This document shows positions 33,901-39,900 of a DNA stretch of 64,000 bases, piece by piece. Within the stretch, counting starts at the first letter, position 1. Every line of letters starts with the position of its first letter. The DNA comes from Escherichia coli (GTDB lineage Bacteria; Pseudomonadota; Gammaproteobacteria; Enterobacterales; Enterobacteriaceae): the NCBI RefSeq assembly GCF_045037415.1, contig NZ_CP173438.1. One strand, 5' to 3'. The position numbers are program-made.

Positions 33901-36900
33901 CCGCGCCGATTTATTGCCGGAATGGCAGGCCTTTTTGCATCAGCATTCGAAATTCGCGTCTGCAAGTTCAGTGAAAAGCACGCTCTACTCCCGTCTCTAT
34001 AACCTTATTGACCGTGGCATGGTTACTCGCGAAGGTATGAGCTATTGCATCACCGATACCGGACGCGCCTGGCTTGGAAAAGCGTTGCCAGCACGAAAAA
34101 GCGATCCGCGTAAAGAGCTGCTGGAAGCGGTGAAACGCTACAACGAGCAGCAAAAAGAGCTGCTGCGCGAACAAATCAGCACAATGAACCCGTACAAATT
34201 TGAACAACTGGTCGGTCAATTACTGGAAGCAATGGGCTACGAGCAGGTCGAAGTGACCAAAGCCTCAGGCGATAAAGGTGTGGACGTGATTGGTCAGGTG
34301 CAGGTCGGCATCACCACTATTACCGAAGTGGTGCAGGTCAAAAGAATGCAGAACACCATCACTCGACCGTATATCGACCAGTTGCGCGGAGCGTTGCCTT
34401 ACCACAAGGCCATTCGCGGTACGCTCATCACCACCGGGAAATTTGCAGCGAAATGTGCAGAAGCGGCGCTCTTTCCGGGGGCCGCGCCCATTACGCTTAT
34501 CGACGGCGATCGCTTACTGGAACTGTTAATCGAAAATAACGTCGGCATTCGCCGCAGCAATGCAGTGGAATTGCTGGATGTGGATTTGCAGTTGTTTGAT
34601 GAGCTGGAGATGGATTAAAGGGCGAAATCCGCCGCCTCAACCATTACAATAGCGACCCAATTTATCTGAACAGAGTTCATCATGGCCAAAGCACCAACTA
34701 AAAAAGCCAAAGCAAAAAAAGGCTTTGAAGAAACATTATGGGATACCGCAAACCAACTTCGCGGTAGCGTTGAGTCCTCCGAATACAAGCACGTGGTGTT
34801 AAGCCTCGTGTTCCTGAAATTCATCAGCGATAAGTTTGAAGCACGCCGCAAAAAAATGATTGCCGATGGGCAAGCTGACTTCCTTGAGATGGAAGTGTTC
34901 TACCAGCAGGACAACATTTTCTACCTGCCGGAAGAGGCGCGCTGGTCGTTTATCAAACAAAATGCCAAACAGGACGATATTGCGGTTCGTATTGACACCG
35001 CCCTCTCGACAATTGAGAAACGTAACCCAACCCTGAAAGGCGCGCTGCCAGACAACTACTTCAGCCGTCAGAATCTGGAAACCAAAAAACTGGCGTCACT
35101 GATTGATACCATCGACAACATCGAAACGCTGGCACACGAAACTGACGTTGAAACGTTGTCGAAAGAAGACCTGGTCGGACGCGTTTACGAATACTTCCTC
35201 GGTAAGTTTGCCGCAACCGAAGGCAAAGGCGGTGGAGAGTTCTACACGCCCAAATGTGTGGTCACGCTGTTAACTGAAATGCTCGAACCCTTCCAGGGCA
35301 AAATTTATGACCCGTGCTGCGGCTCGGCAGGGATGTTCGTGCAGTCGGTGAAGTTCGTCGAGAGCCATCAGGGTAAAAGCCGTGATATCGCGCTGTATGG
35401 TCAGGAACTGACAGCCACGACGTATAAACTGGCAAAAATGAACCTCGCCATTCGCGGTCTTTCAGCTAACCTCGGCGAACGCCCGGCAAACACTTTCTTT
35501 AGCGACCAGCACCCGGACCTGAAAGCCGACTACATTCTGGCGAACCCGCCGTTCAACCTGAAAGACTGGCGCAATGAAGCCGAATTAACCGAAGATCCAC
35601 GCTTTGCCGGTTATCGTATGCCGCCAACCGGTAACGCCAACTACGGCTGGATTTTGCATATGCTCTCCAAGCTGTCGGCTAACGGCACAGCAGGTTTTGT
35701 GCTGGCAAACGGTTCGATGAGTTCTAACACCAGCGGTGAAGGCGAGATCCGTGCACAGATGATCGAAAATGATCTGATTGACTGCATGATCGCCCTACCT
35801 GGACAGTTGTTCTACACCACGCAGATCCCGGTGTGTTTATGGTTTATGACCAAATCGAAGGCTGCCGACCCGGCCAAAGGTTATCGTGATCGTCAGGGCG
35901 AGACGCTGTTTATTGATGCGCGTAACCTCGGCACCATGATTAGCCGCACAACTAAAGAGTTAACGGCGGAAGATATTGCCACAATCGCCGATACCTACCA
36001 TGCCTGGCGCAGCACGCCGGAAGAACTGGCTGCACGGATTGCGCGTGGTGACAGCAAGCTGGAAAAATATGAAGACCAGGCAGGCTTCTGCAAAGTTGCG
36101 ACCCTGCAAGATATTAAAGATAACGACTACGTTCTGACACCGGGCCGCTATGTGGGTGCAGCCGAGCAGGAAGAAGACGGCGTGGCATTTGAGACCAAAA
36201 TGCGTGAATTGTCGAAGACGTTGTTTGAGCAGATGAAGCAGGCGGAAGAACTGGATCGTGCGATTCGCCAGAATCTGGAGGCGCTGGGTTATGGGGAGTA
36301 AGTGGTGTATATATCGCTTAGGTGATATAGCTGAATTTTCATACGGAAAAATGCCTAAAAAGGAGTTTGTTGGTACAGGTGACTATGTCATTTTTTCAGG
36401 ATATAAATACACAGAAAGCTACCCTGAAAAAAATACTTCGGCAGGTGAGTTAATTGTTGTTGCCCGAGGTGTTGGTGGAACTGGCGATGTTAAAATAACG
36501 ACTAGAGATTGTTATTTAACAAATTTGTCCATTAAAATAAATTTGGATGAAACAAAAGTAAGAAAAGAATATTTTTATTATCTGTTTCTACAGAGTAATT
36601 TACGATATCTTGATAGCGGTTCTGCTCAAAGCCAAATAACCATCAATGATCTAGCGAATGTAGAAATATCTGCTCCTTCGCTAAATGTTCAAGATTTAAT
36701 AGTCAAGAGTCTCAAAGCTTTTGATGACAAAATCACAACACTTTCATCCATGAACCAAACCTTGGAACAAATGTCCCAAACCCTGTTCAAATCCTGGTTT
36801 GTGGATTTTGATCCAGTGATTGATAACGCTCTGGATGCAGGAAATCCAATCCCGGAAGCCCTGCAAACTCGCGCCAAATTGCGTCAAAAAGTACGTAATA

Positions 36901-39900
36901 GTGCAGATTTTAAACCGCTTCCGGCGGAAATTCGCTCGCTTTTCCCAAGTGAATTTGAAGAAACGGAGTTGGGTTGGGTGCCAAAGGGGTGGAAAGAAGG
37001 GACGCTTCCAGAGATAGCTTTTATAAACTCCACATCGTGGACTAATAAAAATCAACCAGATTATATCAATTATGTAGATCTCTCTAATGCGAAAGATGGC
37101 AGAATATACTCAATTGAAAAATTATCATTTAATGATGCTCCAAGTCGAGCTCGAAGAATATTAAAAAAAGATGATCTGATTTTTGGCCTTGTCAGACCTG
37201 CTAACAGATCATTTGCATATGTACATGTTGATGGTCTAACGGGTAGCACAGGCTTTGCCGTTATTAGAGCCCAAAAGACGATATATAAAAATTTCATTTA
37301 TTACTTTGTGACCTATGATAAAAATATAGAAGAACTAGCGAGAATTGCTGATGGTGGAGCATATCCTGCTATAAAACCTGATGATATTTGTACATTACCT
37401 CTAATTATTCCATCAATAAATATAATTGAGAAATTTGATGAATTAACAAGCAATTTCAGAGAGATGATGAATAACTCATTAATTCAAAACGAATATCTCA
37501 CCAACCTCCGAGGCACCTTGCTCCCGAAACTCATCTCCGGCGAGCTATCCCTGGAAGATCTTCCGGATCTCACCACCGATACAGAAGCCGCATAACGCAT
37601 TTTGCCCCTGTAAAATCAGGGGCTTTCTGGTAAGGTTTTCTACTGATACGGGAATGCTTACCAGAAATTAGCCAGGGTTGGAGCGCGATATGAGTCTCTC
37701 TTTCAGTGAAGCAAAATTAGAACAAGCGATCATTGAACTGTTACAGGATCAGGGATATCAACACCTGATCGGCGATAATGTCCCACGTTCGAGCCTCGAT
37801 CAGGTCATTATCGAAGACGATCTCCGTCATTATTTAGCGGCACGCTACCAGCCTGATGGCATTACTGAAGAAGAGATTCAGCGACTGATCAAACAGTTCA
37901 CCACGCTTCCGGCCTCCGATCTTTATGAAAGCAACAAAACATTTTGTCGCTGGCTGGCAAATGGTTTTCTGTTCAAACGCGACGATCGGCAACAAAAAGA
38001 TCTCTATATTGAATTGCTCGACACCCGGCATCTACCTGCCGCACTGCGCCAGATATTTGACGCCGAAGATGTCCCGTTGCAACAGGCGGCGGAACTCCCG
38101 CCTTCCTATATGAATCCGCCGCTTAACCGGATTAAGATTGTTAACCAGCTTAAAATCTCCGGCAAAGATAATCAGACTCGTATTCCTGACGGCATTCTCT
38201 ATATCAATGGTCTGCCATTGGTCGTCTTTGAATTTAAAAGTGCGGTGCGCGAGCAGGAAGCCAGTATTGGCGATGCCTGGAAGCAGCTCTGTAAACGCTA
38301 TCGCCGGGATATTCCGCAACTGTTTATCTACAACGCGCTCTGCATTATTAGCGATGGCGTAAATAACCGGATGGGCAACCTGTTTGCGCCCTATGAATAC
38401 TTTTACTCATGGCGCAAAGTCACCGGTAATGAAAACCGTGAACAGGACGGAATTCCATCATTGCACTCAATGATTCAGGGGCTGTTTCATCCGGTACGTC
38501 TGCTGGATGTGATTAAAAACTTTATCTGCTTCCCGGATAAAGCCAAGCACGAAGTAAAAATTTGCTGCCGATATCCGCAGTACTATGCCGCCCGCAAACT
38601 CTATTACAGCATCAAGCAAGCGCGTAAACCTTTCGGTAGCGGTAAAGGCGGCACTTACTTTGGCGCAACGGGCTGTGGTAAAAGTTACACCATGCAATTT
38701 TTAACGCGTCTTTTGATGAAGAGCGTGGAGTTTGCCAGCCCGACCATTGTTTTGATCACCGACCGCACCGATCTGGACGATCAGCTTTCTGCGCAAATGT
38801 GCAACGCCAAAAATTACATTGGCGACGACACCATCGTTCCCGTTACCAGCCGTGAAGATTTGCGTAATCAACTGGCAGGACGCAATAGTGGCGGAGTCTT
38901 TCTGACAACGATCCATAAATTCACCGAAGACACCGAACTCCTTTCTGAACGCAACAATATCATTTGCATCTCGGACGAAGCACATCGTAGCCAGGTTAAC
39001 CTCGACCAGAAAGTCATCGTTGATAAAGAAAGCGGAAAAGTGCGCAAAACGTATGGCTTTGCGAAATACCTGCACGATTCACTGCCAAACGCCACCTATG
39101 TTGGCTTTACCGGCACACCGATTGACGCGACGCTCGATGTCTTCGGTGAGGTGATCGACAGTTACACCATGACCGAATCCGTTCAGGATGAAATCACTGT
39201 ACGCATCGTGTACGAAGGCCGTGCGGCTAAAGTGATCCTGGACTCCAGCAAACTGGAAGAAGTCGAAAAGTATTACGAAGAGTGCGCAAACGCAGGCACC
39301 AATGAGTGGCAAATCGACGAAAGCAAAAAAGCCACCGCCACCATGAATGCGGTTCTGGGTGATGAAGATCGGTTAAAAGCCCTCGCAGAAGATTTTGCCA
39401 AACATTATGAAAAACGCGTAGCCGAAGGTTCCACCGTAAAAGGCAAAGCCATGTTTGTTTGTGCCAGCCGTGAAATTGCCTGGGATTTCTACCGTCAGCT
39501 TAAAGCTATTCGCCCTGCCTGGTTTGAAGTGAAGCAAGCACCCGATGGCGTCGTCCTGACGGAACAGGAGCAGAAAGAGTTACCGCCTTCAGAAATGGTG
39601 AAGATGGTCATGACGCGCGGTAAAGATGACGACGAGGCGCTTTATGATTTACTGGGCACAAAAGAATATCGCAAAGAGCTGGATAAGCAGTTCAAAAACG
39701 CTAAATCGAATTTCAAAATTGCCATTGTTGTTGATATGTGGCTGACCGGTTTCGACGTCCCGGAACTGGATACCATCTATATTGATAAACCCTTACAAAA
39801 ACATAATCTTATCCAGACTATTTCTCGCGTTAACCGTAAACTGGAAGGCAAAAGTAAAGGGTTAGTGGTGGACTACATCGGCATTAAAAGTCAGATGAAC

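Follow-up and report, generated by a model that had tools for sequence, protein, structure and literature searches.

Introduction

AT-rich hsdS genes with recombining target-recognition domains (TRDs) are textbook biology of type I restriction-modification (R-M) systems. In these enzymes, each TRD of the specificity subunit HsdS reads one half-site of the target, the conserved helices of HsdS form a coiled coil that sets the TRD spacing and binds two HsdM subunits, and HsdR brings translocation and cleavage (PMC3874165, PMC12707154). The system closest to the one studied here is EcoMII of Escherichia coli EC958, encoded by EC958_0078/0077/0076 and named by Forde et al. 2015, mBio (PMC4659465). 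Here, we analyze the hsdS gene at 36291..37595 of a 64,000-nucleotide stretch of E. coli DNA (NCBI RefSeq assembly GCF_045037415.1, contig NZ_CP173438.1), referred to below as the window, with coordinates counted from its first letter. This gene is very probably the hsdS of the already characterized EcoMII, a type ID (StySBLI-like) enzyme whose AT-rich TRDs are a generic and stable trait and are exchanged as modules. The system is an ordinary, already known one, with a name and a published site.

Forde et al. assigned the EcoMII site, A(m6A)CN4CTTT/AAAGN4GTT, by knock-out and single-molecule real-time (SMRT) sequencing in EC958; 846 of 847 and 844 of 847 chromosomal sites were methylated (>99%), and this methylation was lost on knock-out (PMC4659465). 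They also place EcoMII in type ID through an HsdR that is 92% identical in amino acids (aa) to that of StySBLI, put the transcription of hsdM in EC958 above that of dam, and describe S.EcoMII as without a characterized homologue at the time (PMC4659465). The type ID family is formally defined by subunit complementation and antibody cross-reaction, and is found in 12% of immigration-control regions; its members StySBLI, EcoR9I, and KpnAI recognize CGAN6TACC, AGCAN6TGA, and GGCAN6TTC, respectively, and EcoKI recognizes AACN6GTGC (PMC3874165, PMC12707154). Type ID enzymes have 6 bp between their target adenines (PMC12707154 Table 1, PMC3874165). In this work, we computed base composition, derived the domain layout, established the identity to S.EcoMII, and followed both the exchange of TRDs among genomes and the persistence of a low GC3 (G+C content, or GC, at third codon positions); the site and the methylation activity are taken from the literature.

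Results

The window carries the EcoMII allele of hsdS

The hsdS gene of the window is 100% identical at the nucleotide (nt) level to hsdS of EC958 (sequence type 131, ST131; EC958_0077) and of Nissle 1917. The identity extends beyond the gene: the window matches EC958 at 100% over 25,001 bp, and Nissle 1917 at 100% over 17 kb. The same hsdS allele is also present in ATCC 25922, ML35, and JJ1886. Since the gene is identical to that of S.EcoMII, its TRDs are those of a characterized enzyme, which is the very observation that the original prediction had set against itself. That prediction had called the recognition sequence probably novel relative to well-studied enzymes. The novelty did not survive, as the site of S.EcoMII, AACN4CTTT, has already been determined and published, although it does differ from the sites of StySBLI, EcoKI, and others. 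A literature search on restriction data for Nissle 1917 returned nothing useful, and a search for the literal string AACNNNNCTTT gave no match.

Alleles of hsdS at this locus in other strains are often broken by IS1 or by deletions, which is in line with the alternative that the gene is a decaying, non-functional remnant drifting toward AT. We give this explanation next to no credence. The open reading frame (ORF) in the window is intact (434 aa), and more than 420 genomes have it in identical form. The near-complete methylation in EC958, its loss on knock-out, and the level of hsdM transcription, all from the EcoMII paper (PMC4659465), likewise speak against decay.

Base composition predicts 7.4 AACN4CTTT/AAAGN4GTT sites for the window, which in fact has 15. 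Three of these are inside hsdR (38703, 39445, and 40760) and the other 12 elsewhere, and within these 64 kb there is no sign of the host avoiding the site.

HsdS consists of two TRDs and two conserved regions

Pfam Methylase_S (PF01420) matched the protein at aa 3–160 (E = 9.7e-21) and, weakly, at aa 231–377 (E = 0.013). Taken with PADLOC and an alignment of seven alleles, this gives the layout of an HsdS, namely two Methylase_S TRDs split by conserved regions. In the seven-allele alignment, the central block is near-invariant and the C-terminal block is conserved, whereas the TRDs cannot be aligned. The segments are as follows.

36291..36752, + strand: TRD1, N-terminal target-recognition domain, aa 1–154; GC 0.34, GC3 0.24
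36753..36983, + strand: central conserved region, aa 155–231, NQTLEQMSQTLFKSWFVDFDP...ELGWVP; GC 0.46, GC3 0.42
36984..37505, + strand: TRD2, C-terminal target-recognition domain, aa 232–405; GC 0.33, GC3 0.24
37506..37592 (with the stop codon, to 37595), + strand: C-terminal conserved region, aa 406–434, LRGTLLPKLISGELSLEDLPDLTTDTEAA; GC 0.59, GC3 0.62

The central conserved region is the coiled-coil spacer and a recombination anchor. The closest solved structure is HsdS of Thermoanaerobacter tengcongensis (PDB 3OKG; 5YBB for the M2S1-DNA complex), whose TRD1 aligned with TRD2 of the window over ~165 residues (E = 1.6e-20). Its TRD fold and coiled-coil architecture are transferable, although it belongs to another phylum, has another framework, and is matched only weakly by TRD1 of the window.

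On the type I model, HsdS would be ordered TRD1, central helix, TRD2, and C-terminal helix, and each TRD would read half of AAC-N4-CTTT. The helices would fix the spacing and dock two HsdM subunits, one adenine would be methylated per strand, and the joining of HsdR to the complex would lead to restriction of unmethylated DNA. An assignment of half-sites by way of TRD1 of EcoKI, which reads AAC, was tried and rejected because its likeness to TRD2 is weak (18% identity, E = 5e-4). A preprint on the methylome of sequence type 101 (ST101) contains no mapping of TRDs to half-sites.

The low GC content of hsdS lies in its TRDs

The hsdS gene has a GC of 0.375 and a GC3 of 0.297, against 0.515 and 0.596 for hsdM, 0.457 and 0.494 for hsdR, and an overall GC of 0.508 for the window. 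Of the 1305-bp segments across the 64 kb (mean GC 0.508, standard deviation [sd] 0.044), just 1.4% reach the AT-richness of hsdS, and among 33 ORFs that do not overlap and have 250 aa or more, hsdS ranks lowest in GC3 (~3.9 sd below a mean of 0.586, sd 0.074). The calculation bears out the earlier impression that hsdS is AT-rich compared with its flanks; the 48-nt string quoted with it starts at 36535 and is 17% GC. The dip is bimodal, with two lobes that coincide with TRD1 and TRD2. That the conserved central and C-terminal segments stand apart from the AT-rich body, as had also been noticed, is equally visible in the values (0.46 and 0.59 vs. 0.33–0.34 for the TRDs).

Could the low GC be due solely to the amino acids of the TRD fold (Lys, Asn, Ile, Tyr, and Phe)? 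When the TRD proteins were recoded with the codon usage of the window, a GC of ~0.46 was expected, which is under the 0.51 of hsdM; the protein sequence thus accounts for part of the deficit. The observed GC is, however, 0.33–0.34 and not 0.46. Roughly one-third of the deficit comes from amino-acid composition, the protein being rich in Lys, Asn, Ile, and Tyr, and roughly two-thirds from synonymous codon choice in the form of AT-ending codons; a GC3 of 0.24 in the TRDs against 0.60 in hsdM likewise means that most of the deficit is synonymous. Amino-acid composition as the sole cause was refuted by this decomposition of codon usage, and we regard it as very improbable.

AT-rich sequence is also found elsewhere in the window. 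The last third of hsdR is AT-shifted (aa 641–1091, 39598–40953; GC 0.418, GC3 0.44) relative to its N-terminal part (aa 1–640; GC 0.485, GC3 0.53), and 300-bp windows drop to a GC of 0.36–0.38 over the 3' end of hsdR and the spacer that separates it from symE. Other deep AT-rich islands are at ~16000–18000 (GC 0.42) and ~56000–58000 (GC 0.39), and the minimum GC for any 1305 bp, 0.346, is at 56651. Coordinate transfer from EC958, for which identity was verified over 23917–48917 of the window, a range that leaves out both islands, maps them to yjjP/yjjQ-bglJ and to the DUF2686 pseudogene/ytiD/idlP/iraD region. The yjjQ-bglJ operon is silenced by H-NS.

Exchange of TRDs between hsdS alleles

Across 5,426 complete E. 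coli genomes, hsdS gave matches in 868. The match was full-length in 425 genomes, all at ~100% identity, and the remaining ~440 matched hsdS nt ~460–705 and 1216–1305 alone, which correspond to the two conserved regions, most of them at 90–97% identity (89–97% among the examples listed). By sensitive blastn, 437 E. coli genomes contain TRD1 DNA and 424 contain TRD2 DNA, always on the chromosome and at 99% identity or more; the same search gave no copy of either TRD at intermediate identity. It follows from the two counts that approximately a dozen genomes have TRD1 without TRD2. Strain TST3 shares aa 1–232 without a difference, then has an unrelated TRD2, and returns to near-identity in the C-terminal block.

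These comparisons support an exchange of the TRDs of the EcoMII family as modules, which would proceed by recombination. Homologous recombination within the conserved segments (hsdM 3' end/hsdS start, central, and C-terminal) would swap whole TRD cassettes and so create new specificities. The original prediction had attributed the AT-rich TRDs to acquisition by recombination. Modular exchange is indeed seen, but AT-richness turned out to be no evidence of recent acquisition, because the seven alleles and EcoKI are alike in this respect and orthologous TRDs stay AT-rich, as set out below.

Three independent IS1-family insertions were observed in hsdS alleles at the locus in other E. coli strains: in NZ_CP102947.1, at 2872–3569 of locus L012, and at 1359–2056 of locus L013. 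One of the three hits the exact EcoMII allele, and the IS1 in L012 replaces everything up to mdtM; AT-rich TRDs may be favoured targets of IS1. E. coli AR_0081 (NZ_CP027534.1) keeps only the first 54 nt of the TRD1 query (36300–36353) and the last 108 nt of the TRD2 query (37393–37500), which points to an internal-deletion derivative of EcoMII hsdS.

Relatives of the TRDs outside E. coli

A search of 5.8 billion proteins and 100,044 species-representative genomes found no near-identical TRD outside E. coli, with none above ~80% aa identity. Neither TRD was found on E. coli plasmids in the genome set, phage and PLSDB collections being outside this search. The relatives of TRD1 at 69–71% aa identity are type ID alleles of Pluralibacter and Enterobacter. 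At 55–60%, gut metagenomes contribute many S proteins of ~158 aa with a single TRD, Roseburia and Streptococcus suis (Firmicutes) being among their sources, and a Bacteroidota HsdS at 56% shares the central conserved region as well. Judged by such homology, the TRD1 family is spread across phyla.

TRD2 has an ortholog at 80% aa identity in an immigration-control locus from an enterobacterial metagenome, L020 (mcrBC-hsdM-hsdS-hsdR-symE). In L020, hsdS (3459–4825) is split into ORFs of 168 aa and 274 aa by a stop that follows TRD1 and immediately precedes the central region, and is probably an inactivated allele; mcrBC lies 5' of hsdM, at the place of the Mrr-like gene of the window. In Wenyingzhuangia aestuarii (Bacteroidota; locus L016), hsdS at ~3989–5326 encodes TRDs homologous to the two of the Pluralibacter allele, each at 56% aa identity, together with the central conserved motif MNQTLENMAQALFQSWFVDFDPVLDNALAAGNPIPEPLQ of the enterobacterial type ID alleles. 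The shared TRDs and motif indicate that a type ID-like S framework occurs across phyla.

AT-rich TRDs are a generic trait

All seven alleles have AT-rich TRDs (GC 0.30–0.37, GC3 0.22–0.31), a central region with a GC3 of 0.39–0.43, and a C-terminal region with a GC3 of ~0.6. EcoKI hsdS of K-12 has the same profile, with a GC of 0.40 against 0.55 for its hsdM and 0.54 for its hsdR. More broadly, a 2025 survey finds hsd genes throughout prokaryotes to differ in GC from the genomes that carry them (PMC12255300). AT-rich TRDs are a normal feature of every hsdS allele compared, and no mark of how the EcoMII allele was acquired.

This bears on a further alternative, a fresh and un-ameliorated import of TRDs from a low-GC donor into the EcoMII allele, with a specificity new to E. 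coli. Such an import would fit a TRD GC3 of 0.24, far under the 0.59 of host genes, and the abundance of TRD1 relatives in low-GC Firmicutes and Bacteroidota. On the other hand, the search for a donor found no copy above ~80% aa identity outside E. coli; the nearest relatives belong to other type ID alleles of enterobacteria, with a synonymous divergence (dS) similar to that of the flanking hsdM; and every other allele examined, as well as EcoKI, shares the composition. Moreover, the allele is fixed and occurs unchanged in more than 420 genomes from several lineages (ST131, Nissle 1917, ATCC 25922, and ML35). We therefore consider a recent import improbable.

TRD orthologs stay AT-rich as their operons diverge

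Three orthologous TRD pairs were compared with the accompanying genes for dS and non-synonymous divergence (dN) by the method of Nei and Gojobori.

TRD2, window vs. L020: dS 1.58; GC3 0.24 vs. 0.29
hsdM, window vs. L020: dS 1.02; GC3 0.60 vs. 0.71
hsdR, window vs. L020: dS 1.86; GC3 0.49 vs. 0.72
TRD1, window vs. Pluralibacter/Enterobacter: dS 0.80–0.84; GC3 0.24 vs. 0.19–0.20
hsdM, window vs. Pluralibacter/Enterobacter: dS 0.76–0.92; GC3 0.60 vs. 0.75
TRD2, E. coli SCU111 vs. Enterobacter: dS 0.58; GC3 0.31 vs. 0.32
hsdM, SCU111 vs. Enterobacter: dS 0.78; GC3 0.59 vs. 0.75

The TRDs have diverged about as much as their operons with no drift to host composition, which argues against their low GC as a recent scar, within the limits set by three pairs, a simple method, dS near saturation, and a strong base-composition bias. 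The dN of the TRDs, 0.09–0.20, exceeds that of hsdM two- to sixfold.

The same data raise the possibility, which we consider less likely than not, that the AT bias at synonymous sites of the TRDs is a maintained state and not a passive relic or the fading trace of a transfer; this would refine rather than exclude the identification as EcoMII with generic, stable TRDs. The three TRD pairs hold a GC3 of 0.19–0.32 through a dS of 0.6–1.6, whereas hsdM and hsdR next to them have followed their hosts in composition over the same divergence (GC3 up to 0.72–0.75); in addition, the window's remaining deep AT-rich islands are at yjjQ-bglJ and upstream of iraD. Candidate causes are selection for an incoming hsdS to be bound or silenced by H-NS, throttling of HsdS translation by rare AT-ending codons, and continual gene conversion from a pool of AT-rich cassettes. 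Nevertheless, the limits of the dS analysis just given count against maintenance as well, and separate imports from AT-rich donors that had already diverged would leave a similar picture. If true, a maintained bias would imply either selection (for example through H-NS silencing or a limit on HsdS dosage by rare codons) or continual conversion from an AT-rich pool that crosses phyla.

The hsd operon and its neighbors

The genes around hsdS, and a hairpin from a terminator scan, are arranged as follows.

33452..34618, + strand: Mrr-like type IV restriction endonuclease, 388 aa, directly 5' of hsdM, in the same immigration-control island
34682..36301, + strand: hsdM, 539 aa, methyltransferase subunit M.EcoMII, with an 11-nt overlap with the hsdS start
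36291..37595, + strand: hsdS, 434 aa, ATG start, specificity subunit S.EcoMII, WP_000535012.1, matching the RefSeq coding sequence of identical genomes
37604..37623, + strand: GC-rich hairpin GCCCCTG-TAAAAT-CAGGGGC, then TTTCTGG, between hsdS and hsdR
37690..40953, + strand: hsdR, 1087 aa, restriction/translocase subunit R.EcoMII, RefSeq start at 37690

These assignments come from profile matches and RefSeq. HsdM matched NCBIfam TIGR00497 under its curated cut-off and PADLOC MTase_I (E = 3.6e-193), and is WP_001029745.1 in identical loci; HsdS matched PADLOC Specificity_I over its full length (E = 1.8e-154); and HsdR matched NCBIfam TIGR00348 at 470.7 bits (cut-off 284.55) and PADLOC REase_I at 1717 bits. 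By NCBIfam, PADLOC, and RefSeq, hsdS thus stands in an operon with hsdM and hsdR, as in a type I R-M system. The Mrr-like protein matched PADLOC PDC-S02 (E = 7.7e-207) and mREase_IV (E = 1.3e-27); it carries the RefSeq label "restriction endonuclease", and is Mrr, EC958_0079, in Forde et al. (PMC4659465). The hairpin has a 7-bp stem with 6 GC pairs and is a consensus match from the scan. It looks like a terminator, which would fit hsdMS and hsdR as separate transcription units.

The gene order is btsT-yjiX-yjiA-brnAT-mrr-like-hsdMSR-symE-yjiS-yjiR. The locus is the chromosomal immigration-control region of E. coli (yjiA ... symE), and K-12 bears EcoKI between the same anchor genes, yjiA and symE. 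The brnT/brnA toxin-antitoxin pair is at 32679–33255 on the − strand, between yjiA and the Mrr-like gene, and is followed by an AT-rich intergenic stretch (33000–33450, GC 0.39–0.43) 5' of the Mrr-like gene. The K-12 counterpart of the brnTA/Mrr-like position is the classical mrr.

Discussion

Our results identify the hsdS of the window, very probably, as the specificity gene of EcoMII, and several points have to be weighed against this reading. First, the assignment to type ID follows the published HsdR identity figure, taken over as given. Second, the spacer is N4, unlike the N6 found in all three classical type ID enzymes. A distance of 6 bp between target adenines, as in type ID, would be reached in AACN4CTTT from A2 to the A opposite T9, and is predicted for EcoMII only on the condition that methylation falls on the third A of AAAG. 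Third, we infer that EcoMII restricts DNA, the cited results being on methylation (PMC4659465). Lastly, the co-divergence of TRDs and operons assumes that the TRD orthologs split inside the Enterobacteriaceae, and independent imports from diverged low-GC donors would give similar numbers.

The identification has a practical side. The allele is common to ST131, Nissle 1917, and ATCC 25922, all of them strains in which transformation is attempted, so that AACN4CTTT in incoming DNA would best be methylated or absent. More generally, a low GC should not be taken as a sign that a TRD is novel or was acquired recently. A single question deserves further study, namely why the synonymous sites of TRDs remain AT-rich in GC-richer hosts.

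Among the described systems, EcoKI (type IA, K-12) resembles the system of the window in occupying the same island between yjiA and symE, and in having AAC as one half-site. The likeness extends to composition: EcoKI hsdS has a GC of 0.40 and a GC3 of 0.32 against 0.55 and 0.66 for its hsdM, with AT-rich TRDs and GC-richer conserved regions. However, its genes are ordered hsdR-hsdM-hsdS, whereas those of EcoMII are ordered hsdM-hsdS-hsdR, and the two frameworks are unrelated. The type ID enzymes StySBLI, EcoR9I, and KpnAI are closer. As in that family, hsdMSR of the window lies in the immigration-control region, between yjiA and yjiS/symE, and HsdM and HsdR are at least 90% conserved across enterobacterial genera, their 90%-identity clusters spanning Salmonella, Klebsiella, Enterobacter, and Citrobacter. 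By contrast, the TRDs of these enzymes, and hence their sites, are unrelated to those of EcoMII, and their N6 spacers differ from its N4. From EcoMII of EC958 itself there is no detectable difference: hsdS, the surrounding 25 kb, the order hsdM-hsdS-hsdR, and the Mrr-like neighbor are all the same.

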